Counted from the stretch's first letter, positions 9,429-46,134 are shown. The stretch: 64,000 nucleotides of DNA from a bacterium (GCA_965219955.1 OZ244799.1:3264001-3328000), one strand, 5' to 3'. Made by a program: numbers and translations. Notes: generated from the letters alone by a model not told the origin.

Positions 9429-9707
9429 GGGGCTGTTGAAAAAGCCCTCGTCAATGGAAAAACCCCGATTAACGAGGATTTGACTCGTCCAATGAAAGAG
9501 CAAGATTCACTCCCCCCTTGAGGGGGAGTCGATGAAGCCGAGCGGTTTGTGCGAAGGCTGAATCGGTGGGGGGTGAATCGCGTTTTATCGCCATTCCGAA
9601 TTATACCCCCCACCGAATCGCTTGCGGGCTTACGCCCTTAGCTCTTCGACTCCCCCTCAAGGGGGGAGTGATTTGGCCCGACTCGCAAGGATTTTTTCAA
9701 CAGCCCC
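9429..9707. mobile_element. MITE-like element with 15-bp TIRs GGGGCTGTTGAAAAA/TTTTTCAACAGCCCC enclosing a large palindrome
   Basis: Perfect TIR pair at 9429-9443 and 9693-9707. Internal perfect 25-bp inverted repeat at 9508-9532 and 9646-9670. No ORF. Confidence 0.7.
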
Positions 9708-33832: not shown

Positions 33833-34153
33833 GGGGTATTGAAAAAGTCACTTCGCCCCTAGCAGCGTCCCCGTTCGCCTCATCCTGAGTAGCGGCCCCT
33901 CGACTTCGCTCGGGGCAGGCTCCGCCCCCCATCTTCCTCATCCTGAGTAGCCGCCGAAGGCGGCGTATCGAAGGTCAATCGCGCCCAATGCGGAAGCGAT
34001 TGCTCCGCATGTCGGAAGACGCCTTCCATCCTTCGATACGGCGCTTACGCGCCTACTCAGGATGAGGTTTTATGGCCACCTGCGCGCTAGGAAGGAGGGC
34101 CGCCGCGTAACCCCATATGGCCCGCTCCCGAATCAGGTTTTTTCAACAGCCCC
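33833..34153. mobile_element. TIR-bounded MITE-like element containing CCTCATCCTGAGTAG...CTACTCAGGATGAGG palindrome
   Basis: Ends GGGGTATTGAAAAA and TTTTTCAACAGCCCC, with internal CGTATCGAAGG/CCTTCGATACG inverted pairs. Confidence 0.6.
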
Positions 34154-34259
34154 TCAAGGGGGAGTAAAGTCTCCTCCTTCCCCGGTTGGCTTTATACGCA
34201 GAATCACGAGAGCAGGACTTTTTCAGGAGGTAGAGGGAGCTTTCCTCTCGACTGGAAAA

Positions 34260-34402
34260 GCAACCCCCCTACCCCCCTTGTCAGGGGTCAAAACCGACCG
34301 AAGAGGGAGGTTTTGCAAGACGATGTGTTTCTCGTCAATGGCTCATGCAAACGCTCGTTCATCACTCGCGTTTGACCCCTGTCAAGGGGGGGTGGGGGGG
34401 GT
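34260..34402. mobile_element. ~145-bp MITE-like element, copy 2 (inverted relative to 32466-32610)
   Basis: Reverse complement matches copy 1 along its length, with few substitutions. Confidence 0.75.
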
Positions 34403-34405
34403 TCC

Positions 34406-34675
34406 GTAGGGGCCGCATACATGCGGCGGGATATTTCGAAATTCTCCTGATTCCGGCATGCGCCGGAATGACGAACAAAACCGCACCGCCTCATCCTGAG
34501 TAGGCGCGTAAGCGCCGTATCGAAGGATGCCTTCTCGTCCCGGTGCGAGCCCCTCGCCCTTCGATACGCCGCCCTTCGACAAGCTCAGGACAGGCTCTTC
34601 GGCGGCTACTCAGGGTGAGGAAAGAAGCGTTGGCGGTTTCCAGGGGACGCATACGGGGCTTTTTCAACAGTTCCT
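34406..34675. repeat. cluster of GTAG/CGTC-type palindromic repeats; includes ~185-bp unit repeated at 42913-43107
   Basis: GTAGGGGCCGCATACATGCGGC and ATTCCGGCATGCGCCGGAATGACG palindromes. A 71-bp block (34555-34625) is identical to 42989-43059. Confidence 0.75.
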
Positions 34676-35647: not shown

Positions 35648-36513
35648 CCCCCTTGTCCGGGGTTGTTGAGAAAGTCCTGCAATACCGGAATGACGGCAAT
35701 GGTATCCCGCCTTGGCGTAGGTAGTGTAGGGGCCGCATACATGCGGCCCGTCGTTGGAAGGCAAAAAGGCCGGGTCGCATATATGCGACCCCTACACACA
35801 AGAGATCCGCCCGGTGAAGGCTTTTTCAAGCGGTGGGGGGTACGATGGTTTTGTAGGGACAGGCCTCCGTGCCTGTCCTGCCCTTCGTGGTTGTCCTTCG
35901 TCAGGACAGGCACGGAGGCCTGTCCCTACAGAACCACCACGCCAGTCCGTAATCACTCCCCCCTTGAGGGGCTTGTTGAAAAACCCCCTCATCCCGAGTA
36001 GGCGCGCTTGCGCGCCGTATCGAGGGACGAGGGAGAGCCGGGAGCCTGGCCTGAGATTGTCGATGGGGAGCGCCCTTCGATACAAACGCTCCTTTCTCAG
36101 TCGCGTTTTACCTTCGGCGGCTACTCAGGGTGAGGCGGCGTGGTTTTGTTCGTCATTCCGGCGAAAGCCGGAATCCATTTTGACTTTTTGCTTTTCGCAT
36201 TGATTCATGCTCGACAAAGCCGCAATCAAACGCCTGAACGCATCCGCCCTCATCGGCTCCGGACTCCGCATTCTCTCCCGTCCCGAGCGGGGCTGACGCC
36301 GGAATAACGATCAAAGACGAAAGGCGAAAATGGATTCCGGCTTTCGCCGGAATGACGGTGGTTTTCCCGCATTGAGGGGCTTTTTCAACAGGCCCCTCAA
36401 GGGGGGAGTGATTCCTCTCTCCTTGGGCTTTTTCAACAATCCCGTCAAGGGGGGGTAGGGGGGGTTGCTTTTCGAGACAGCGTTTTTGTAGGGGCCGTTC
36501 GTGAACGGCCCTC
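35648..36513. repeat. nested array of palindromic repeats and TIR ends
   Basis: TIR ends at 35659, 35969, 36381 and 36429. GTAG REPs at 35725, 35853 and 36488. CGTCATTCCGGCGAAAGCCGGAATCC and its inverse at 36151 and 36331. CACTCCCCCCTTGAGGGG/CCCCTCAAGGGGGGAGTG arms. Confidence 0.8.
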
Positions 36514-37480
36514 ACCGCCCGTAGCGCAGCCTCGCTACGGCGCCCTGTTTCGCGATCTGTCCCTGCGCGTAGCGGCCCGGCATGGCCGGCGAGCGCCAGC
36601 GGCCGGCGAGCTGCATCTCGACCAGGGAGGCCCCCGCGCTCGCCAGGCTCTGCGCGCCCCCCACCCGGAGGCTGTGGCCGCTCACGCGCCCCTCGGCGCC
36701 CGCGGCCTTCCCCCACCGCGCGATGACGCCCCGGATGCTCCTGTCCGTCAGGCGCCCGGGCCGAAGCCGCCCCCCCTTGTAGACGGGCCGGAAGAGCGCT
36801 CCCTCCTCGATGCCCGCGCGCGCCAGCCAGGCCCGGATGCGCTCCACCGTCGGCGCCCCGAGGAACTGCACGACGCCCAGGCCCTCCTGGTCCGTCTTCG
36901 AGCGCCGGATCCGCACCGTCTGCTCGCCCAGGTCCACGTCCGCAACGTCCAGGGCCGCGACCTCCGACACCCGCAGCAGCGCGTCGCTCGCCACCGCCAC
37001 GATCGCGGCGTCACGCACGCCCCCCAGGGTCCCCGTCCCCTCCGCCAGCGTCGCCGCAAGGTCCGCCTCCTCCCAGCGCACCCCGGCCACCTGGCCGCGG
37101 CCGCGCTCCGAACCCAGACGCCTGAAGCCCGCCAGGGCGCGCAGCGCCGAAGGACCCACCGGAGAGGAGCGGCCGCCCAGCCTCGCCCGGAACCGCAGCG
37201 CCGCAACCGCCATCGAGGCGCAGGCCGCCGAGCGGCCCTTCTCGAAGAGCCCCGTGAGGTAGGCCGCCACCCCGGCGTCGGTCTCGGGATACCCCGAATC
37301 CTCGAAACCGCGCAGCGCCGCCTCGTAGGCGCGGCGCGTGTTCTCGGCGATAGAGGCGCGCACCAGATCAGACGCCGCGCGGAACGGACCGAAGCGCGTC
37401 GGGCGGCCTTCGTCGGGTTTTTCCAGGGGGGAGCGTCTCCCCGGCGTCGCGGGTCTCGCCCATGGTTCTCCGTTGTCCAT
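36512..37480 (-). CDS. tyrosine recombinase/integrase (Cre-like, with N-terminal SAM-like domain)
   Basis: AENTRRAY, RDAA...LLRVSE (Arg), RRSKTDQEG (Lys), SGHSLRVG (HxxR), GRW and RYA (Tyr). Start is uncertain (37480 or upstream). Confidence 0.9.
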   Translation of the reverse strand: MDNGEPWARPATPGRRSPLEKPDEGRPTRFGPFRAASDLVRASIAENTRRAYEAALRGFEDSGYPETDAGVAAYLTGLFEKGRSAACASMAVAALRFRARLGGRSSPVGPSALRALAGFRRLGSERGRGQVAGVRWEEADLAATLAEGTGTLGGVRDAAIVAVASDALLRVSEVAALDVADVDLGEQTVRIRRSKTDQEGLGVVQFLGAPTVERIRAWLARAGIEEGALFRPVYKGGRLRPGRLTDRSIRGVIARWGKAAGAEGRVSGHSLRVGGAQSLASAGASLVEMQLAGRWRSPAMPGRYAQGQIAKQGAVARLRYGR

Positions 37481-37635
37481 CGTTTGTCCGGCGTCCTGAA
37501 GTTCCGGCGGCGATTCCCGTTCAAGGGGCTGCCATCCCGGGTCCACGCCACATATATGTCGCCTTCCCGATCCCATGCAACATATATAAGGCCGAAAAGG
37601 AAGAATCGCCCGCCGGAATCGTTTTTTTTACCCTA

Positions 37636-37879
37636 TCTTTACAGCAATCCCTGTCTTTTCTTTACGGCAATCCCTGTCCTTGCCGCAATTACATTCTTAT
37701 AACTGTTATTATCAGAAAATATAACACCTCTCACGACCATGTCAAGCGCGATTTCGGGGTCCCCGGAGGGGTTTCGGGCGCCGTTTCGCGTCTTTTTTCG
37801 CTCATTTTCGGCCCGAATGCGCCCCGAAACGGCTCTCCCGGCGGAGAACGGGGCTTCCAGTGTCCAGTAATAACAGTTA
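37636..37879. promoter_or_regulatory. putative recombination/accessory site next to recombinase
   Basis: Tandem 23-mer TCTTTAC(A/G)GCAATCCCTGTC(T/C)TT at 37636-37681. Exact inverted 12-mers TAACTGTTATTA (37700-37711) and TAATAACAGTTA (37868-37879). Confidence 0.5.
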
Positions 37880-38432
37880 GCGGCGGGCAGGCCGGGTTCA
37901 AGGCGCCCGGAAGACACTTGCCTTTGGAGGCCGTGAAGGGCGGGCGCATGCCGCAGGAATATGTGTCCCGCGGAACCACCGGCCCGGACGGCGGCGCGGC
38001 CTCGCCGCCGCGCCCCGGCGCTGCCGATACGGATCAGGACGGGCCGGACGGCGGCCTTTATATACACGCGATAGAGGAGGTTCATCAGACGAAGCCGAGA
38101 ATGCGCTGGAGAAACCTTTATTGACCCGAGTTTGCAACGCGATTCACGAGGCGCGGTCATCCCGGAGATGACGGTGTAAACAAAAAGACCCTCCCCCCCG
38201 AAGAACCAGCTTGCGGCGGGGACCATCCCGAAAGATCCACGCCTCCTGAATGACGTCCCAGGCAGATTGGACGGCGGGCCCGGAAGACGCCGGCTCCCCG
38301 TTCCGCCAGGACAGGCTCACAAACACAAATAGATGAAAGATCCGAATTAAACGCGAGGAAAGGAGGTTAATCGGAGAAAGCCGGAAATTCACTGAAGATC
38401 CCTTTTTCTATGTATTCAGGAGGACTCACTAA

Positions 38433-40334
38433 ATGATGTTCAAAGACAAGTATATTCACAAGTTTTACGCTTTCGCGCTGGCGGCCGTGTTCGCGCTGAC
38501 GCTGGCCGGCTGCGGCGGCGGCGGTGGCACGGCGGCGGCGCCGGACCCGGAGCCGCCCGCAATGCCGGAACCGACCCCGCAGGAAACCTGCGAGGGTGAC
38601 GGCGGCCGCTATAACGCGGACGGCTCCTGCACGAGCGCTGAGGATCTCGCGGCGGAAATGACCGAAGCGGAAGCCCTGAGCGCCGCGCAGGAAGCAGCGA
38701 TGACGGCCTACATGGCGGCGATGGCGGCAGTGGCCGGTGCGGTGGACCCCGTGGCGGCTACGAACGCGCAGCCGCACGCAACCGCGGCCATGGCGGCATC
38801 CGCCTCGGCGGCGGCGGCCACGGATTCGGCGACGGCCATGGAGCACCAGGCGGCGGCCGAGGCGGCCCGCGACATGGCGGTGGAAGCCGGCATGACGCGC
38901 GGCCTGGGGATCACCACACGGGCGAACGCGGCTTCCAACCAGGCCGCCATCGACAGCGCCACTCTCGTCGGCGTGCCTGCTCCCGCTCCGGTATCCAATG
39001 CGGGAAGAGTGGGCAGGGCGATGGCAGCCGCTGCGACGACGGTAGCTGCGGGCGCCGATGGCAATGTCGACGGTAGCGCTACTACTACAAATCCAGATAC
39101 CACCCAGCAGGGCGCAGTGGTCACGTCATCGGCGAGAAACATCGGCAGTGGTCCCAGATTCACGGTAATGGCGCCGACCGGCGGCACCGCCACCCCTCAG
39201 TTGAGAGGCGAAAGCCCGACAGCGATCACGACGCGCGGCGGCTGGGCGGGCGCCGAATTGCTGAGCGGCTCGGGCGCTCCGGGTGGCAACAGAGGGTATG
39301 CCCTCGTATTCACGGACATCAATCCGGCGGCGCAGAGTTATTACACCGCTGTTGATACCACCATCCCCGCTAGCGCGAATTTCCGTAATGCTGACCAACT
39401 AGCAGCAAATGTTGATACAACAGAAACTACCGGCCAAAGCGTAAACAGGGCTGTCATCGGCGGAGAAATCCCGGGAGACGGAAGCCACTTTGTGGGAACG
39501 TATAATCAGATCCCCACCGACAACAACCCGCCTGTTCCGGGACGGTTCTTCTGTGGTACCGGCGTGGCCTGCTCCATCAGCGTAGACGCCTCGGGCGTCC
39601 TCAGGGGGATTACGGGCTACGTGTTCCAGCCCGCCATCGCTGGATCCGTGATGCGGGGAGACTCGGACTATATGACCTGGGGCGTTTGGGTGAACATTCC
39701 GAACGACCCGCAACAGACGAGCGGAACTACTACTGCAGATGCTGCTCTTACGAACCCCGCAACCGCCGCCGCATTCGCCAGCGGCAGGGACCCGTTCCAG
39801 GTTCCGGCCGATCTCACGGGCACGGCGACGTATAACGGGGTCGCGAACGGCCTGTATGCGGCGGGCGGCATGGTCGAGTACTTCGAAGCCGACGCCAGCC
39901 TTTCGGCCGATTTCGGCGGCAGGAGAGCCAACGATTCTGATCCCAGAGATGGTACCGCGAACGACAATGGCCTCCTGGGCGCCGTCACCGGATCCATCAC
40001 CAACATCAAGGCCGGCGGCATGGACGTCGAAGGTTCGCTGACGCTGGGTAGAGCTCCACTGCTCGCCGGTGATCCTGCTGTTACGACACCTGCTACTGCT
40101 CCTACAGCTGATTCCCCGGCCAACGTCTTCAGAGGCAACACCCAAGGCTCCCTGGGCGGCAGGGCCATACAAGGTTCCTGGACGGGGCGGTTCTACGGCC
40201 CCCAAAGGGCGCAGGGCGTGGCGATTCGAACCGAATTCCCCACGACCGCGGCTGGCACCTTCGGCGCCAGAACGCCTGCGGGCGCCCCAGGGGTCAGCAT
40301 CCTGGGTTCTTTCGGCACGTGGAGGGCCGAGTAA
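38433..40334 (+). CDS. surface lipoprotein with C-terminal TbpB-like beta-barrel
   Basis: Lipobox LAGC plus poly-Gly linker, Ala-rich stalk, and DYMTWGVW, GTATYNG, GSWTGRFYG, AGTF and SILGSFG barrel strands. AGGAGG SD upstream. Confidence 0.82.
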   Translation: MMFKDKYIHKFYAFALAAVFALTLAGCGGGGGTAAAPDPEPPAMPEPTPQETCEGDGGRYNADGSCTSAEDLAAEMTEAEALSAAQEAAMTAYMAAMAAVAGAVDPVAATNAQPHATAAMAASASAAAATDSATAMEHQAAAEAARDMAVEAGMTRGLGITTRANAASNQAAIDSATLVGVPAPAPVSNAGRVGRAMAAAATTVAAGADGNVDGSATTTNPDTTQQGAVVTSSARNIGSGPRFTVMAPTGGTATPQLRGESPTAITTRGGWAGAELLSGSGAPGGNRGYALVFTDINPAAQSYYTAVDTTIPASANFRNADQLAANVDTTETTGQSVNRAVIGGEIPGDGSHFVGTYNQIPTDNNPPVPGRFFCGTGVACSISVDASGVLRGITGYVFQPAIAGSVMRGDSDYMTWGVWVNIPNDPQQTSGTTTADAALTNPATAAAFASGRDPFQVPADLTGTATYNGVANGLYAAGGMVEYFEADASLSADFGGRRANDSDPRDGTANDNGLLGAVTGSITNIKAGGMDVEGSLTLGRAPLLAGDPAVTTPATAPTADSPANVFRGNTQGSLGGRAIQGSWTGRFYGPQRAQGVAIRTEFPTTAAGTFGARTPAGAPGVSILGSFGTWRAE

Positions 40335-40358
40335 GCAACAGCGCATGACTCCTTCGGT

Positions 40359-40383
40359 TCCCGGGCGTCAGCACGACGCCCGG
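40359..40383 (+). terminator. hairpin between the two lipoprotein genes
   Basis: CCCGGGCGTC-AGCAC-GACGCCCGGG perfect 10-bp stem with no U tract. Confidence 0.4.
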
Positions 40384-40497
40384 GGCCGGGGGATGAACGA
40401 ACGCGGCGCAAGGCGTCGCGCAGGCAGTAGATGGAAACCCAAGTTTTATCCGCTCGCCCCTTCCGTTTTCCCGGAAGGAACCAGCCTTAGGGGGCAA

Positions 40498-42288
40498 ATG
40501 ATGAAAATGCTCAAGCTTTTGGGATTGACGGTATTTGTCGTGTGCATTGCGGCATTTGCCTCCGGCTGCGGCGGCGGTGGCGGCGGCTCTGCGATGACGC
40601 CGGAGGAACCGCCGCCGGTGATGGAATGCCCGGAGGGTCAGGTCGGGACGTACCCGGACTGCACGGAACCGGGGCCGACGGATGAGCAAAGGATAGCCGC
40701 GGCGAGGCAAATACTCGCAGACAACCTCACTGACGCCCGCAGTCTGGCGCTAGCGGCGAGTTCGGTGGCGGCAGCGGTGCAGTTCCACCCCGACGCCACG
40801 GCGGAGCAGGTAGATCTTGCTCTCGGTTATGCAGCCGACGCGCAAGCGGCCCTGGCGGCTGTCGAGGCCGCGAGGGACGCCGGGAATGCGGCCGCCGCCA
40901 CGCTCACGCAGGCGCAAGCCGCGGTGACGGCCGCGCAGGCGGCGCTTAATGACCTGACGGCCGCGCAATCGGCGGCGGCGGGCATCCAGAGCGCCGTGGA
41001 AGCGGTTGCGAGCCAGCGCCAACAAATGCAAGCGAACGAGGCCGCCCTGACGAACAACTCCTCGCTCATCCAGCATGTGAGAGCCAACAAGATCCTCTCC
41101 GACGCGCTGTTGGAGGATCTGGAGCCCGCCCGGCTTGTTGGAGGTCGGGCCGGGGTCACCGACGGTTCTGACCCGCAAATTGCTGAAGATGATACCGAGT
41201 CGTGCACTGCGCCGTGCGCCACGTTCCCTGCGAATACCGGGACCGGCGCAACAGCGGTCGTCGGACAGCGGGGAGTTCGGGTGGGAACCCTTATTTCGAA
41301 CAGCACGACGCCTGCGCTTACCGGAACGGGCCGCCTTCCCTATGGATTCAATCTGGAAATGGAAGACACCCCCTCTGCTGATATTACCACCTTCATCAAC
41401 GCCTACACGGACATTTCGCAAACGCGGCTCAAGGTAAGAAGAAGAACGAATTTCCTGGAAGACGATGCTGCGGAAGGCGATCGGCGGTATGAAGAAGTAG
41501 ATGTGGCAGACACCGACTATCTGCTCGCCGGAATCTGGATGACGGTGAACAACGCCAATCTGGGCGAATCTCAGATACAAGCCTTCGCGTATGGGAGCCA
41601 GCCCATCGTCGCATCTTTCAATTTCTGTAGTGGTATTGAAGGCCCTACTGATCCGGTATCTACAATGGTAACATCAACAGCTACTCCAGCGGTAACAACG
41701 ACGACTACAAGAGCATGTGCGCCGACTGAAGGATTAAGCACCATCGCCGGCGCCAATGGATTTGTGGACGAAGGCAAAGACGTGACGGCCACCTACACGG
41801 GGGATGCGAACGGCGCCTACATCGCGGGAGGAGATACGAGTTATTTCACCGGGAGCGTCGAACTCACGGCCGAGTTCCAGAACCCGATAACTCAAGGAAA
41901 CATGGTTGCTGAGGATGGCAAGGGCAGCATTCAGGGTTCGGTCACGAACATCACCTCCGGTGGACAGTCAATCGTGGGCAGCATCGAGCTTCAAAAACAG
42001 ACCCTTGGAAATGATATAAACACCGCTTTTGCTGGTGCGGCCGTCGGCGTGGTGGACGGCAAATCCTTCGGCGGCAATTGGAGGGGCCAGTTCTTCGGAC
42101 TGAGACACAAACCCAAAACCACGGAAACGGTAACGGATAGAACGGATCCTCTTGCTATAACAACTACCATAACAACGACGTACAAGCCCGATGCACCCGG
42201 TTCGGTTGCGGGAACCTTTTTCGTCAAGCAGCTGAGCAACCCGGCTGGAGAGGCCGCCTTCATCGGCGCGTTCGGGGCGCACAGGTAA
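40498..42288 (+). CDS. surface lipoprotein with C-terminal TbpB-like beta-barrel (paralog)
   Basis: MMKMLKLLGLTVFVVCIAAFASGC-GGGGGG lipoprotein signal, Ala-rich helices, and DYLLAGIW, ATYTG, GNWRGQFFG, AGTF and FIGAFGAHR. Confidence 0.82.
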   Translation: MMKMLKLLGLTVFVVCIAAFASGCGGGGGGSAMTPEEPPPVMECPEGQVGTYPDCTEPGPTDEQRIAAARQILADNLTDARSLALAASSVAAAVQFHPDATAEQVDLALGYAADAQAALAAVEAARDAGNAAAATLTQAQAAVTAAQAALNDLTAAQSAAAGIQSAVEAVASQRQQMQANEAALTNNSSLIQHVRANKILSDALLEDLEPARLVGGRAGVTDGSDPQIAEDDTESCTAPCATFPANTGTGATAVVGQRGVRVGTLISNSTTPALTGTGRLPYGFNLEMEDTPSADITTFINAYTDISQTRLKVRRRTNFLEDDAAEGDRRYEEVDVADTDYLLAGIWMTVNNANLGESQIQAFAYGSQPIVASFNFCSGIEGPTDPVSTMVTSTATPAVTTTTTRACAPTEGLSTIAGANGFVDEGKDVTATYTGDANGAYIAGGDTSYFTGSVELTAEFQNPITQGNMVAEDGKGSIQGSVTNITSGGQSIVGSIELQKQTLGNDINTAFAGAAVGVVDGKSFGGNWRGQFFGLRHKPKTTETVTDRTDPLAITTTITTTYKPDAPGSVAGTFFVKQLSNPAGEAAFIGAFGAHR

Positions 42289-42359
42289 CGGAGCAGGACG
42301 CCTTCGGCCTCGGGGCTTCATCGCCCCGGAGCCTCAGGCGGGCGAAGGAAAAGGAAGAA

Positions 42360-42550
42360 GAGTGGAAAAGGGGGTTGCCCGTTGGTTGCTTCCCTCGTGA
42401 TAGAGCAAACAGTACCGCTCCTGGTTATGAGTTTGAGTCCTCGAGCCGGGAACGGGAACAACGGGCAGCCCCTGTTCTCGCTTCATCGAAGCAAGCCGGC
42501 ACCCCGACTCGGCCTGCACCTCGGGGAATGTGTCGCAGCAGTTCCCACAC
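42360..42550 (-). ncRNA. structured non-coding segment resembling an IS110-family non-coding end (no transposase present)
   Basis: 14-bp outer stem (42371-42384/42459-42472) with internal loops, plus two upstream hairpins. The motif order GGTGCAGGCCGAGT...CCGGCTCGAG...CATAACCA...GAGCGGT...CTATCA...GGAAGC is recalled from IS110 ends and not verified. Strand is uncertain. Confidence 0.35.
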
Positions 42551-42557
42551 TCGGGGG

Positions 42558-43275
42558 TTTTTCAACAACCCCTGAAAGCAGCCCTTCGAGGGGTGTCGGC
42601 CCTTTCCTCCACAGACCACGCGTTTTCGCCTCCCCGCCTTGAAAGGACAGCGCCGAGGAGGGGCTGTCCTTTATCCCCCGACAAGGGTCTGTTGAAAAAA
42701 TCCCCTGAGGGAGCGCGTTGAATTTCACTCCCCCCTTGAGGAGGGGGAGTCGGCAAGACGAGGGCGAAGCCCGAAGTCGCGCCGGTGGGGGGACATGCCA
42801 CAGAGTAAACCTCCCCCCACCGAATCGGCCTTCGCAAAAAACGCTCGGCCTCTTCGTCTGGCTTTCCCCTCGGGAAGCCAGACCCTCAAGGGCCTGTTGA
42901 AAAAGTCCTCTCCGCCTCATCCTGAGTAGCGGCGGAGCCGCGTATCGAAGGATGCCCTCTCACCCGGCGCGAGGTGTTCGACTCCCCGCGCCCTTCGATA
43001 CGCCGCCCTTCGACAAGCTCAGGACAGGCTCTTCGGCGGCTACTCAGGGTGAGGAAAGAGGCGTTGGCGGTTTGTGGAGGGGCAGACCAGGCTTTTTCAA
43101 CAGCCCCCTCAAGGGGGGAGTGGTTCCTCTCTCGTCGGTCGGTTACTTACGACAAATAATGAGAGGCGTTGTGAGATTCTCCGGAAGGGTTTTGTAGCAG
43201 GACAACCCAAAAGGGTTGTCCTGGCCTCCGTGGTTGTCCTTCGTCAGGACAGGCACGGAGGGCTGTCCCTACAGC
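42558..43275. repeat. nested palindromic repeat / MITE cluster
   Basis: TIR ends at 42558, 42684, 42890 and 43093. An inverted homolog of the 9508-9670 palindrome starts at 42726. The TIR element 42890-43107 is flanked by duplicated CTCAA. A GTAG doublet matches 35886-35930. Confidence 0.78.
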
Positions 43276-43619
43276 GAACAATCTCGAAGGTCGGATAGGA
43301 CTTTTTGGGCAACCCCTCACCACCCGGGTTCGCGCGCGCGTTTGCCCGCATTTGCCGTCACCGGGCATTCTCCGGAGGAGGCGATAATCCCGCGCGGGAA
43401 AGGGAGCATCAAACCGGCGGGAGGAGGGGAGAAATGGAAAGGGTGTTCCGGTTCGATCGGAGGGTCGCAGGCCCTCTTTCTTCCGGTCGGCGAACCGCAG
43501 CCGCTCCCCGTCCGCGTTCGGCCCGCGAACCGGAATTTCCGAAAAATAAGATAAAATTGGATAAATTCACGAGGTTTTTCGATAAATTAAAAAATGTTAT
43601 CTTGTTGATAAATAATAAG

Positions 43620-44468
43620 TTATCTGGTTTTCGTCTTCGGGGCGGCGATGATGTAGGTGGGCGCCGCCCGCCCCGGAATCTCGATCTCATCGCGCACCCA
43701 CAACTGCGAACTCGAGCCGCCGTCGAGGTTCATGGCGTCGCGGACGCCGAGGCCGCCCTCCGATTCGGGCAGCGCGAGGAACTCCTGAAGCTCGCACCAG
43801 GAGATGCCGCGCGTCTCGGCCTCGCTCACCAGGACGACGAGCCTGTCCCCGGCGTCCAGGGCGACCACCGTCCTCCTCGTGGCGCGCAGGTATTCCCGGT
43901 AGCGGGACAACCCCTGAACGGGCTTCCCGTCCTCGACGAGGAGAGGCCCCGCCTGGAACGCTTCGCTGACGCCCGCATCCTCGAACTTTTCGCGGGAAAC
44001 GATTTCGGGCCGGCCGCCGCTGCGCCCTGCGGTGAACACCGCTCCGTAATGCAGGAACGTCTTGCGCCCCCGGTACAGCACGCGGCTGTTGAACACCTTG
44101 CCGCCCGAGCGGAAATACCCCATGGGCCGGCCTTTTTCGTCATAATAGCCGGCGTTGAGAACCACGGCGGCGCCCGGCTTTTTGCCGATGGCGCCGAAGT
44201 CGACGGGTGAGAACCACTCTGATTTCTCGCGCCAGTGGAGCCTGATTTCAAAGTCCTGATGCCGCAGGCGAACCGCCTTCATCCGCGCGGTCGCGCCGTT
44301 TTCGAACCGGATTCGAACGTCCCGCGTTTCCAGCGGCAGGGTTCGCCCCGGCGTCCAGCGGCCGTCGCCCACGGGCCGGCCCTTGAGAGGACAATCGGAT
44401 GCGGCCGCCGCGGGCCGGACGGCCACAAGAGAGCCGACAATCAAAATCAACACCAGCAAACGCTTCAT
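43620..44468 (-). CDS. phosphodiester glycosidase (NAGPA/DUF2233) family exported protein
   Basis: Signal peptide MKRLLVLILIVGSLVAVRPAAA, and LNAGYY, QAGPLLV and AMNLDGGSSSQL motifs. Confidence 0.85.
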   Translation of the reverse strand: MKRLLVLILIVGSLVAVRPAAAASDCPLKGRPVGDGRWTPGRTLPLETRDVRIRFENGATARMKAVRLRHQDFEIRLHWREKSEWFSPVDFGAIGKKPGAAVVLNAGYYDEKGRPMGYFRSGGKVFNSRVLYRGRKTFLHYGAVFTAGRSGGRPEIVSREKFEDAGVSEAFQAGPLLVEDGKPVQGLSRYREYLRATRRTVVALDAGDRLVVLVSEAETRGISWCELQEFLALPESEGGLGVRDAMNLDGGSSSQLWVRDEIEIPGRAAPTYIIAAPKTKTR

Positions 44469-44523
44469 GGCGAAAAGCCCCTCAACGCCGCCAACCCCGC
44501 TTCCGTCCGACTGCGCGCAATGA

Positions 44524-46134
44524 CTAGAAACCAGCCGCGCAGCCATCCCTCCGGTGGTCGGAACCACCCATGAAAACGCCGTCATCCAGCCGGACGATTC
44601 CCTGCCCGCCGCCGAAGCCCTCATAGCCGCCTGCGCGGCGGACGTCGTGGCCGCGCGATTCCAGCTCCCGGAGCACGGCCTCCGGCACGCCGCTCTCTAT
44701 CGCCACCGCCCGGCCACCCAGAACGCGAAAACGCGGCGCTTCGATGGCCTCCTGGACGTCCATGCCGAAATCCACCATGTTCGAGAGCACCTGCACGTGG
44801 CCCTGGGGCTGCATGTCGCCTCCCATGACGCCGAAACTCATCCAGGGTTCTCCGTCTTTCATCACGAAACCGGGAATGATGGTGTGCAGGGGCCGCTTTC
44901 CGGGCGCGATGCAGTTCGGGTGGCCTTCTTCCAGCACGAAGCCGCTGCCCCGGTTCTGGAGCATGATGCCCGTCTCGCCCCCGGTGACGCCGGAGCCGAA
45001 ATGATGGAACAGGCTGTTGATGAACGAGCACATGTTGCCCCGGGAATCCGCCACGGTGAGGTAAATCGTGTCGTTCCAGGTGTCGGGAATCCCGGCTGCG
45101 GGGCTGCCGGCTTTCTTTTCATCGATGAGCTTGCGCCTTTCATCGGCATACCCTGAAGACAGCAGCCCTTTCAGGGGCACGTCCGCCCTGGCCATATCCG
45201 CGACGTAGCGGTCCCTGTCCGCAAAAGCGAGCTTCATCGCCTCGATCACGACGTGGAGATGCTCGGCCGAGCCGTAACTCATCTCCCCGAAAGGATAAGC
45301 GTCGATGAGATTCAGGCATATCAGCGCCGTGACGCCCTGCCCCGAGGGCGGTATCTCGCAAAGCTCATGGCCGCGGTAGGATGCGCGAATCGGCTCGACC
45401 CATTCAGATTTCGTGGCGGCGAAATCTTCCAGTTCGAACAAACCCCCGATTTCCTTCGTGTAGCGGACGATCTCCTCGGCTATCGGGCCTTCGTAGAAAG
45501 CCTCACGCCCGCCACCGGCTATCACCCGCAGGGATTCTCCCAGCTTCGGGTTCCGGAATCTTTCTCCGATCTTCGGCGAACGTCCCGCCGGCAGATAGGT
45601 TCGCCGCGAGTATGCGCACTTTTCCAGCTTTTCCGTCTGGTTCGCCCATGCGCGGCCGATGATGGGAGAGAGGGGAAACCCGTCTTCCGCGTATTGAATC
45701 GCCGGCCCCAGAAGCTCCGGCATTGTCTTTTTGCCGCTGCCGCATCGCTCGTGGGCGGCGAACCAGCCATCCACCGCACCGGGAAGGGTGCAGGAATAAA
45801 TTCCCGTCACCGGCATGGAGGAAAATTCCCGGTAACGCGAGAACGTGGCCCTGGCCGGACTCTTTCCGCTGCCGTTCAAGCCCAGGAGTTCCTTCGCATC
45901 GGCGTCCCAGTAGAGCATGAACATGTCCCCGCCGACACCCGTGGATTGCGGCTCCACCACGTTCAATGCCGCGGCTGCGGCGATGGCCGCGTCCATGGCG
46001 TTTCCGCCTTCTCTCAGTATCTGGAGACCCGCTTCGGCAGCCAGGGGCTGGCTGGTCGCCACCAAGCCCCCCGCCGCGAATACGGGGGAGCGTCCTGCGG
46101 CCAGCGCCGTCCTTGTCGTCGGCTCTTTCAACAT
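44524..46134 (-). CDS. ggt: gamma-glutamyltransferase
   Basis: ATSQPLA, GGNAMDAA, DTIYLTVAD (Thr nucleophile), LQNRG, PGKRPLHTIIP and GGDMQPQGH motifs. Confidence 0.93.
   Translation of the reverse strand: MLKEPTTRTALAAGRSPVFAAGGLVATSQPLAAEAGLQILREGGNAMDAAIAAAAALNVVEPQSTGVGGDMFMLYWDADAKELLGLNGSGKSPARATFSRYREFSSMPVTGIYSCTLPGAVDGWFAAHERCGSGKKTMPELLGPAIQYAEDGFPLSPIIGRAWANQTEKLEKCAYSRRTYLPAGRSPKIGERFRNPKLGESLRVIAGGGREAFYEGPIAEEIVRYTKEIGGLFELEDFAATKSEWVEPIRASYRGHELCEIPPSGQGVTALICLNLIDAYPFGEMSYGSAEHLHVVIEAMKLAFADRDRYVADMARADVPLKGLLSSGYADERRKLIDEKKAGSPAAGIPDTWNDTIYLTVADSRGNMCSFINSLFHHFGSGVTGGETGIMLQNRGSGFVLEEGHPNCIAPGKRPLHTIIPGFVMKDGEPWMSFGVMGGDMQPQGHVQVLSNMVDFGMDVQEAIEAPRFRVLGGRAVAIESGVPEAVLRELESRGHDVRRAGGYEGFGGGQGIVRLDDGVFMGGSDHRRDGCAAGF

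Follow-up and report, generated by a model that had tools for sequence, protein, structure and literature searches.

Two adjacent lipoprotein genes, here termed A and B, in a 64,000-nucleotide (nt) stretch of the genome of an uncultured marine bacterium (GCA_965219955.1, OZ244799.1:3264001-3328000; the whole stretch is referred to as the window) have a confirmed codon patchwork, with short segments of A/T-ending codons set into a scaffold of G/C-ending codons. The window spans G000:C1:3264001-3328000 in a genome assembled as a single contig of 4.28 Mb, which has a G+C content of 60.9% and in which open reading frames (ORFs) have a mean G+C content at third codon positions (GC3) of 0.785; positions without a prefix are counted from the first nucleotide of the window. 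Its A/T-ending segments correspond to loops that are hypervariable and lie between conserved strands, both genes are recombinant mosaics of alleles and paralogues, and the link between GC3 and variability is specific to their family, not general to the genome. A variable, mosaic, TbpB-fold lipoprotein cassette is a well-supported description of the pair. The two genes and their low-GC3 patches are listed here, with paralogues numbered as described below.

Gene A, 38433..40334, + strand: lipoprotein of 633 amino acids, lipobox LAGC; predicted N-terminal helical bundle, beta handle and C-terminal barrel (TbpB/HpuA/hemophilin-like fold).
A patch 1, 39063..39116, + strand: residues 211-228, long loop, hypervariable with indels; GC3 0.25-0.42 (loop 209-222, GC3 0.29).
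A patch 2, 39369..39440, + strand: residues 313-336, loop segment exchanged between alleles; GC3 0.08-0.33 (loop 325-340, GC3 0.31).
A patch 3, 39711..39764, + strand: residues 427-444, indel-rich among orthologues; GC3 0.25-0.33.
A patch 4, 40053..40124, + strand: residues 541-564, long loop; GC3 0.08-0.33 (loop 545-562, GC3 0.22).
Gene B, 40498..42288, + strand: lipoprotein of 596 amino acids, lipobox ASGC; C-terminal 260 residues homologous to the A barrel.
B patch 1, 41614..41739, + strand: residues ~373-414, insertion relative to A and to B3-B5; GC3 0.17-0.33.
B patch 2, 41992..42027, + strand: residues ~499-510, loop homologous to A patch 4 (aligned to A 541-566); GC3 0.33.
B patch 3, 42118..42180, + strand: residues ~541-561, Thr-rich loop; GC3 0.17-0.42; family entropy 2.15, family GC3 0.41.

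Profiles of GC3 were computed in sliding 12-codon windows along A (overall GC3 0.72) and B (overall 0.66). The dips of A coincide with its four patches (minima of 0.25, 0.08, 0.25 and 0.08), and those of B lie at 41614-41739 (0.17-0.33), 41992-42027 (0.33) and 42136-42171 (0.17), with weaker dips at 41164-41199 and 41434-41469 (0.33 each). Elsewhere in both genes GC3 is mostly 0.58-1.0, apart from a few shallower drops to 0.33-0.5, and G+C content at the first two codon positions (GC1+2) is not lowered inside the dips (0.46-0.75). A first-pass annotation of the window had named six stretches of A/T-ending codons in a G/C-ending scaffold, and all six lie in or on these dips.

The non-uniformity of GC3 along both genes exceeds what synonymous shuffling produces. 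Synonymous codons were permuted among positions encoding the same amino acid (2000 shuffles), with patches and low windows defined by at most 3 of 12 G/C-ending codons. Gene A has four patches (0.20 +/- 0.43 expected) and 29 low windows (0.5 expected), counts reached in 0 of 2000 shuffles; gene B has 37 low windows (2.8 +/- 3.4 expected; 0 of 2000 shuffles) and three patches (0.95 expected), the latter being borderline (P = 0.05). Such patches are rare in the genome: of 1756 ORFs of at least 300 amino acids, 1518 are patch-free, and low windows amount to 0.27% of all windows. Paralogues of A are among the ORFs richest in patches (A3 with 7; A4 with 6 and 71 low windows), and the other patch-rich ORFs mostly have low GC3 throughout (0.49-0.61) or over-extended starts. 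Maximum-segment and sum-of-segments statistics were dropped for window counts because over-extended ORF starts dominated them. Gene A, or A1, is outside the genome ORF set, being overlapped by an over-extended B ORF, and was analysed separately; this longer ORF for gene B (40069-42288) was rejected as a 5' over-extension.

GC3 and sequence variability across the family

The genome encodes five A-B pairs at 43-52% protein identity (A1-A5 and B1-B5, with A1 and B1 in the window), one of them with an interrupted B gene. In that copy, B2 (G000:C1:2361154-2364587), the C-terminal end lies ~1.7 kb downstream, with an opposite-strand ORF in between. Among 8000 candidates scored, 297 A and 203 B homologues were found at E <=1e-3, all of them derived from metagenome-assembled genomes (MAGs) and unnamed or called 'hypothetical protein'. 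Within the genus, A was found in 7 of 18 other genomes and B in 9 of 22, and 32 loci came from a scan of species-representative genomes, where the MAG labels are Nitrospinota, 'bacterium', Nitrospirales and, in one case, Chloroflexi; the gene order A-B is retained in the parsed loci. Signal peptides, read from the translations without a signal-peptide predictor, end in ...FALTLAGC-GGGGG in A and ...AAFASGC-GGGGGG in B. Across 114 A and 101 B homologues, neither the lipobox cysteine nor the residues beside it vary, and the motifs that the first-pass annotation had taken as conserved (DY..G.W, ATY.G, G.W.G.F.G and AGTF) occupy invariant or nearly invariant columns of the same sets.

GC3 declines with variability throughout the family. 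In the paralogue alignments, GC3 of A1 steps down from invariant (0.83) through near-invariant (0.80) and variable (0.68) to gapped columns (0.56), and that of B1 does likewise (0.78, 0.68, 0.62 and 0.44). The shift occurs within single amino acids, as pooling of the five A paralogues shows (Thr 0.85 to 0.64, Ala 0.80 to 0.56 and Asp 0.91 to 0.48). In 19 A genes, GC3 drops from 0.80 to 0.58 as column entropy rises (rho -0.40, p 5e-25), and mostly-gap columns have 0.48; in 27 B genes, the drop is from 0.75 to 0.51 (rho -0.33), with 0.49 in mostly-gap columns. GC1+2 is nearly flat across entropy classes in both sets. Low-GC3 patches occur at the same places in orthologues of 67-91% identity, and the family mean GC3 is 0.20-0.32 at three loops, although their amino acids differ, with a mean of 0.24 at residues 550-558 (A patch 4). 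In a wider scan, conserved columns (0.60-0.89) exceeded variable columns (0.44-0.77) in 31 of 31 A genes, including those from Nitrospirales-labelled MAGs, and the 31 family loci have a G+C content of 0.55-0.65, none being below 55%.

This link was compared with a control of 1080 non-family paralogue pairs of 35-65% identity from the same genome. Control GC3 is 0.843 in identical, 0.830 in substituted and 0.811 in gapped columns, with a mean difference of 0.013 (standard deviation 0.033), whereas the 15 family pairs, which are not mutually independent, have 0.71, 0.61 and 0.52 in the same classes and differences of 0.026-0.161 (~0.10). Thirteen of the 15 are above the control 95th percentile and nine are above the 99th.

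Allelic exchange, fold and export

Over the 19.6 kb that follow the cassette, identity to a contig of another genome (G011:C8) is 96%, but the syntenic A and B there are just 74% and 66% identical in protein, and the copy of A in G011 that is 91% identical (G011:C27) is at another locus with non-syntenic flanks. In a third genome (G012), the unit formed by A, B and the tyrosine recombinase gene upstream of A is 850 kb from the flank. A triplet test assigns 45 of the 53 informative sites within the initial 300 nt of A to the syntenic allele L009 and 303 of the 340 beyond that point to L002, which is located at another locus; the breakpoint at 38729-38732 has a chi2 of 156.5, which 0 of 1000 permutations reach. 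The N-terminal part of B similarly follows the syntenic allele and its body follows an allele of genome G017, and the patches of B, including patch 1, a gap in the paralogues, are without a close relative among 26 B genes. Patch 2 differs between A1 and the 91% allele L002 as a block with codon indels: the version in A1 resembles the 67% allele L017, and that in L002 resembles a 79% allele.

Loops are more diverged than scaffolds in divergent pairs, where synonymous divergence (dS) is 0.76 versus 0.29 and 1.65 versus 0.46 in low-GC3 and scaffold columns (2-3x). The ratio of nonsynonymous to synonymous divergence (dN/dS), a comparison proposed in the first-pass annotation, is 0.45-1.38 in low-GC3 columns and 0.30-0.63 in scaffold columns. 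Contigs of two other sequencing runs carry alleles ~95-96% identical to A1 over 38984-39886, and 11 of the 15 listed differences, which comprise the best-supported rows only, are within patches 1 and 2 (~1/5 of the span). In patches 3 and 4 of near-identical alleles, identity is 0.95-0.97 versus 0.93-1.00 in the scaffold, with no enrichment of scattered changes. The runs with close alleles are all labelled sponge or marine metagenomes, no RNA run is among the listed holders of close alleles, and contigs of runs X5-X7 cover the body of B (41142-42173) sparsely or not at all. In four runs, the summed contig depth is several-fold higher over 38433-38820 and 40498-40625 than over the gene bodies, an excess over the conserved 5' parts of A and B that is expected if many family alleles share those parts.

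The first-pass annotation had ascribed the loops to localized mutagenesis or to segmental exchange with a pool of alleles. Exchange among alleles and paralogues is borne out by the mosaics; localized mutagenesis is not, as the loops of the near-identical alleles A1 and L002 differ mainly by whole-block replacement (patch 2), not by scattered point changes. The search for donor copies that it had proposed found no donor or template copy in the genome for any of the seven patches (best non-self genomic match 13-19 nt, E >=0.22), and the other four A-B pairs (~45-52% protein identity) are without these loop sequences. Beyond its remark that no reverse transcriptase or template repeat lies in the window, no repeat was found genome-wide, no usable reverse transcriptase was found in the genome, and RVT_1 matches are confined to 2.32 Mb and 2.637-2.640 Mb, at least 660 kb away, the latter being split by a serine recombinase among transposases. 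We note a mobile-element field at G000:C1:2629000-2642000 (L121), where fragments of a gene resembling B lie together with transposases of the Mutator and IS110 families, two tyrosine integrases and a reverse-transcriptase gene interrupted by that of a large serine recombinase.

An AlphaFold2 model of A (predicted local distance difference test 88, predicted template modelling score 0.80) places a helical bundle (residues 69-201) ahead of beta structure, with a beta-rich handle and a C-terminal eight-stranded barrel. The top Foldseek matches of this model are HpuA, fHbp, hemophilin, TbpB and NHBA (E 2.5e-5 to 1e-3). Profiles of A and B matched no surface-lipoprotein chain of these kinds in the PDB at E <=1, so the relation to the TbpB/HpuA/fHbp group is by fold only. 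Neither protein matched a Pfam family at E <=0.1, the TbpB_B_D or GNA1870-type signature is absent from both (Pfam and NCBIfam, E <=0.1), and NCBIfam gave just two matches, both to B, far below threshold and to unrelated families. Residues 335-596 of B align with the barrel of A (residues 407-633) at an hhalign probability of 99.9 (E 3.8e-36), and the fold of B is read from this barrel homology; in the same alignment, B patch 1 sits between two barrel strands as an insertion relative to A. The low-GC3 segments of A fall on long loops of the model, as anticipated in the first-pass annotation, which had placed them between the conserved strands; the alignments and the hhalign comparison for B agree. 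In the beta part of the A model, GC3 is 0.76 in strands and 0.61 in loops (Fisher p 9e-4), and the four loops of at least 13 residues have GC3 of 0.29, 0.31, 0.46 and 0.22, versus 0.60-1.00 in short loops.

One Slam gene (SlipAM, PF04575; 94.8 bits plus a weak TPR_Slam match) is present in the genome, at G000:C1:2998776-2999645. It is two genes from a distant family member, a 540-amino-acid lipoprotein with 29% identity to A over 196 amino acids and the same type of signal peptide. This Slam region (G000:C1:2998776-3002713, L122) also holds a DUF559 gene beside the A-related lipoprotein. When the defining features of Slam-dependent lipoproteins are taken from Hooda et al. 2017 (PMC5449769), A has the lipobox, handle and barrel and is without an adjacent Slam gene. 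On the basis of the model and of this gene content, A and B are probably displayed on the cell surface via the single Slam translocon of the genome.

Origin of the A/T-ending loops

The A/T shift of the loops is mainly a shift to T. Third bases in the low-GC3 columns of A are T 0.46, C 0.27, A 0.17 and G 0.10, and codon shares in low-GC3 columns depart strongly from those of the genome (ACT 46% versus 4%, GCT 48% versus 6%, CCT 52% versus 8% and GAT 79% versus 33%). Translational preference for T-ending codons was rejected, since ribosomal-protein genes do not favour them (ACT 5%, GCT 8%, GC3 0.78), and replication-strand asymmetry was rejected, as the T bias is equal in leading- and lagging-strand paralogues. 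Pyrimidine carry-over at third positions was shown with four-fold codons grouped by whether their column mates require a pyrimidine (Asp, Asn, His, Tyr, Phe, Cys, AGY-Ser and Ile) or are Glu, Lys or Gln. The pyrimidine fraction at third positions is 0.66-0.70 with pyrimidine-restricted residues in the column versus 0.38-0.52 with Glu, Lys or Gln (p 1e-4 and 3e-38 in A; 6e-69 in high-GC3 and 0.086 in low-GC3 columns of B). The third base is thus carried over while positions 1-2 change, and since Asp, Asn and Ser are abundant in the loops, an A/T shift shows as T.

Third-position substitutions were polarised in sister pairs as G/C to A/T (S>W) or the reverse (W>S), where the non-patch class comprises all columns outside low-GC3 patches (scaffold and intermediate):

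A non-patch, three hand-picked sister pairs: S>W 51, W>S 5; implied equilibrium GC3 ~0.25; current 0.77.
A non-patch, six automatically chosen pairs: S>W 59, W>S 19; equilibrium 0.49; current 0.75.
B non-patch, two pairs: S>W 13, W>S 9; equilibrium 0.60; current 0.68.
Thirteen flanking genes: S>W 109, W>S 96; equilibrium 0.70; current 0.72.

The 51 S>W changes of the hand-picked A pairs include 26 C>T and 15 G>A, and the counts for synonymous changes only are 40 versus 1. At positions 1-2 in patches, S>W changes number 17 versus 6 W>S. As evidence for A/T drift, these polarised counts are suggestive only.

Segmental exchange alone does not explain why the loops end in A/T, and an escape from whatever keeps GC3 high would be needed as well. 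We give an even chance to an explanation in which the scaffolds are homogenised by recombination and GC3-rich, and the loops are old allele-specific blocks with synonymous sites drifting to A/T. A and B would form a two-gene cassette of TbpB/HpuA/hemophilin-like surface lipoproteins from a family evolving as a mosaic, in which homologous recombination among alleles and paralogues repeatedly exchanges and homogenises the signal peptide, helical stalk, barrel strands and even the non-coding flanks, and scaffold synonymous sites would remain at the genome-typical GC3 of ~0.8. The long surface loops would be old, strongly diverged blocks, each specific to an allele and transferred only as a unit; being too divergent to pair with other alleles, they would be little affected by a weak GC-raising force. 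GC-biased gene conversion is one candidate for that force, and weak selection rendered ineffective by diversifying selection at linked sites is another; both fit and are inseparable here. Loop third positions would then drift under A/T-biased mutation pressure, and Asp, Asn, Ser, Thr and Ala would interconvert via positions 1-2 while retaining a third-position pyrimidine, yielding ACT, GCT, CCT and GAT. Diversifying or balancing selection, which a host, phage or predator may impose, would be at work.

Several points weigh against this explanation. Surface display is something we infer, with the Slam gene ~300 kb from the cassette and not adjacent to it, and so is the cause of the A/T shift. 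Patch counts are few and discordant (S>W 5 versus W>S 3 in the hand-picked pairs; 2 versus 6 in A and 2 versus 6 in B in the automatically chosen pairs), and the W>S excess, if real, would mean that patches are gaining G/C, suggesting an A/T-rich birth. Parsimony with distant outgroups favours common-to-rare changes in both column classes, a bias that by our estimate could on its own yield ~1.7:1 in the scaffold, and the flux in the B scaffold (13 versus 9) has no clear excess. Given the few discordant counts and this bias, we treat the A/T-ward flux in A as real but imprecise, and because the implied equilibrium ranges from 0.25 to 0.60 with the choice of pairs, its match to a loop GC3 of 0.2-0.3 is loose. 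The family also recombines a lot, yet its GC3 (0.57-0.83) is mostly under the genome mean of 0.785, the opposite of the published gene-level trend with recombination.

The main rival is that the loops were born A/T-rich, as segments inserted or replaced from an A/T-richer source or by error-prone fill-in at illegitimate recombination, and are slowly gaining G/C. Insertion-type columns do have the lowest GC3 (the mostly-gap columns of the A and B gene sets and the gapped columns of A1 and B1), the largest B patch is an insertion, and the automatically chosen pairs favour W>S in the low-GC3 columns of both genes. This excess is only eight changes per family, however, and lies in the direction of the parsimony bias, while the hand-picked pairs point the opposite way; no low-GC host or donor was found, all 31 loci having the same contrast at ordinary G+C content, no donor copy is in the genome and GC1+2 of the patches is not lowered, and we regard an A/T-rich birth as unlikely. 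Targeted diversification of the loops, by a diversity-generating retroelement or by deaminase-like C>T/G>A hypermutation tied to the cassette, would accord with the dominance of C>T and G>A among the A non-patch changes, with the S>W excess at patch positions 1-2 and with the recombinase that accompanies the cassette. We nevertheless consider it quite improbable: template repeats are lacking and RVT_1 genes are remote, patches 3 and 4 of near-identical alleles have no excess of scattered point changes, ten lineages lack strand-coordinated heterogeneity of C>T versus G>A (chi2 8.0, 9 degrees of freedom, p 0.54), and the A/T-ward flux is seen outside patches and is thus not confined to loops. 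A related reading, to which we likewise assign little probability, couples cassette-specific mutagenesis to recombination, with C>T/G>A damage on single-stranded or break-repair intermediates erased in the scaffold by conversion and kept in the loops; if true, this would be a diversification mechanism without a reverse transcriptase.

Selection on nucleic acid or translation could also retain rare A/T-ending codons in the loops, through slower translation, weak mRNA structure or a lower identity between paralogues that spares loops from conversion. The loop codons ACT, GCT and CCT are indeed the rarest of the genome, and low GC3 persists at the same loops family-wide despite differing amino acids. 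A and B have Sec-type lipoprotein signal peptides, which would mean export in an unfolded state, so co-translational pausing offers no obvious gain; GC3 declines gradually with variability and does not mark domain borders, short conserved loops are at 0.60-1.00, and the preference for T is explained by amino-acid exchange paths, which together make such selection improbable. That conserved residues use preferred codons in any gene for translational accuracy would account for the small effect of the same sign in the 1080 control pairs, but the family effect is ~8x larger, with most family pairs above the control 95th percentile, and ribosomal-protein GC3 (0.78) is no higher than the genome mean; this generic reading is very improbable. 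Equally hard to credit is slippage in (ACT)n or (GCT)n triplet repeats, fixing T-ending codons along with in-frame length change: short act-act-act and gct-gct runs are present and loop indels are whole codons, but adjacent identical codons are not in excess, at 22 versus 19.5 +/- 3.6 in A (50 distinct patch sequences, P 0.29) and 31 versus 41.9 +/- 5.7 in B (121 patch sequences, P 0.99).

Flanking elements and related systems

The cassette is flanked by a recombinase gene and by non-coding regions that are kept between paralogous loci:

Tyrosine recombinase gene (Phage_integrase family), 36512..37576, - strand: PF00589, E 1.8e-18; divergent, upstream of A.
Candidate invertible promoter, 37700..37879, no strand assigned: 156 nt between perfect 12-nt inverted repeats (37700-37711 and 37868-37879).
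Upstream region kept between paralogous loci, 38040..38432, + strand: 94.7% identity over 395 nt to the region upstream of A3.
Downstream region kept between paralogous loci, 42291..42646, + strand: 98% identity (357 nt) to the sequence that follows B3 and 92.7% to the one following B4.

Unlike their upstream regions, the coding sequences of A and A3 are only ~52% identical in protein. The recombinase gene accompanies the A-B pair in G011:C8 and in G012, and a 68% homologue adjoins paralogue A4. The candidate invertible segment lies between the recombinase gene and gene A and contains a strong sigma-70-like site on the minus strand (37745->37718; 11 of 12 matches, with TG) that faces the recombinase gene and points away from A. 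The segment is present in 10 of 32 related loci, in all 10 oriented as in the window (assembled contigs), and no minus-strand match to it turned up when the regions upstream of the five paralogues and of the related gene at ~2.929 Mb were searched. Two to three tandem copies of a 23-nt unit, which may be protein-binding sites, immediately precede the recombinase start (37636-37699). A promoter and terminator scan found nothing besides the minus-strand promoter-like site, and an Rfam scan of 36000-44500 found nothing at the gathering score. Short repeats with hundreds of genomic copies, resembling miniature inverted-repeat transposable elements or repetitive extragenic palindromes, are found at 42720-43600, 36376-36454, 9504-9674 and 33876-34622; copies bracket the recombinase-A-B unit and include a 17-nt perfect inverted pair (36395-36411 and 42725-42741). 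An ORF with an NAGPA (phosphodiester glycosidase) domain (43620-44624, - strand) is at the border where near-identity to genome G011 resumes.

A shares its lipobox, beta handle and eight-stranded barrel with Slam-dependent TbpB-fold lipoproteins (TbpB, LbpB, HpuA, fHbp and the hemophilin HphA), and a Slam gene (TPR, DUF560) is in the genome; like them, A and B have long variable loops and mosaic alleles. The tbpB and fHbp genes are antigenically variable and modular. Antigenic variability of TbpB is mentioned in the abstract of PMC13480600. Unlike these lipoproteins, A and B have no sequence match to Pfam, NCBIfam or a PDB chain, a 130-residue helical bundle precedes the handle of A, the A-B pairs occur in five copies with a tyrosine recombinase at two of the five and Slam not adjacent, and the hosts are Nitrospinota- or Nitrospirales-labelled MAGs, not Proteobacteria. 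The Slam surveys consulted are searches of Proteobacteria (PMC5449769), and Nitrospin* is mentioned 0 times in PMC8406197. Among literature titles and abstracts, we found no report of the family in Nitrospinota or of a within-gene GC3 patchwork in surface lipoproteins, which is not proof of absence.

The pilE/pilS system of Neisseria and vlsE of Borrelia generate antigenic variation from silent cassettes. Variable segments of A and B are likewise replaced between conserved blocks, but the genome has no silent loop donors, and the exchange partners are full-length, expressed-type genes in other loci and genomes. Localised hypervariability in a surface-type protein also recalls diversity-generating retroelements, whereas A and B have no nearby reverse transcriptase or template repeat, vary by indels, and do so in several loops instead of one C-terminal variable region. 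The fimS element is an invertible promoter with a tyrosine recombinase. The A-B locus resembles it in having a promoter-like site between inverted repeats beside a recombinase gene, but that segment has one orientation in 10 of 10 related loci and concerns on/off control, not the codon patchwork.

Lassalle et al. 2015 (PMC4450053) report that GC3 and recombination are linked in bacteria irrespective of codon selection, a link attributed to GC-biased gene conversion. As in that study, recombining segments here have high GC3 and others lower, independently of expression-linked codon preference; the contrast in A and B, unlike there, is found inside individual genes, over 50-130 nt, and tied to hypervariable loops, and biased conversion is only proposed.

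These results describe TbpB/HpuA/hemophilin-fold lipoproteins in uncultured bacteria with Nitrospinota- and Nitrospirales-labelled MAGs as multi-copy, recombinase-linked, mosaic two-gene cassettes. They also provide a clean contrast within genes, in which transcript, strand and expression are the same, yet GC3 is ~0.8 in the scaffold and 0.2-0.3 in the loops. If the proposed cause is true, these genes would allow mutation pressure to be told apart from the force, recombination-dependent or selective, that upholds GC3 in a genome of 61% G+C, a question usually addressed only between genes. Low-GC3 patches could also mark long-lived hypervariable surface loops from a single genome.

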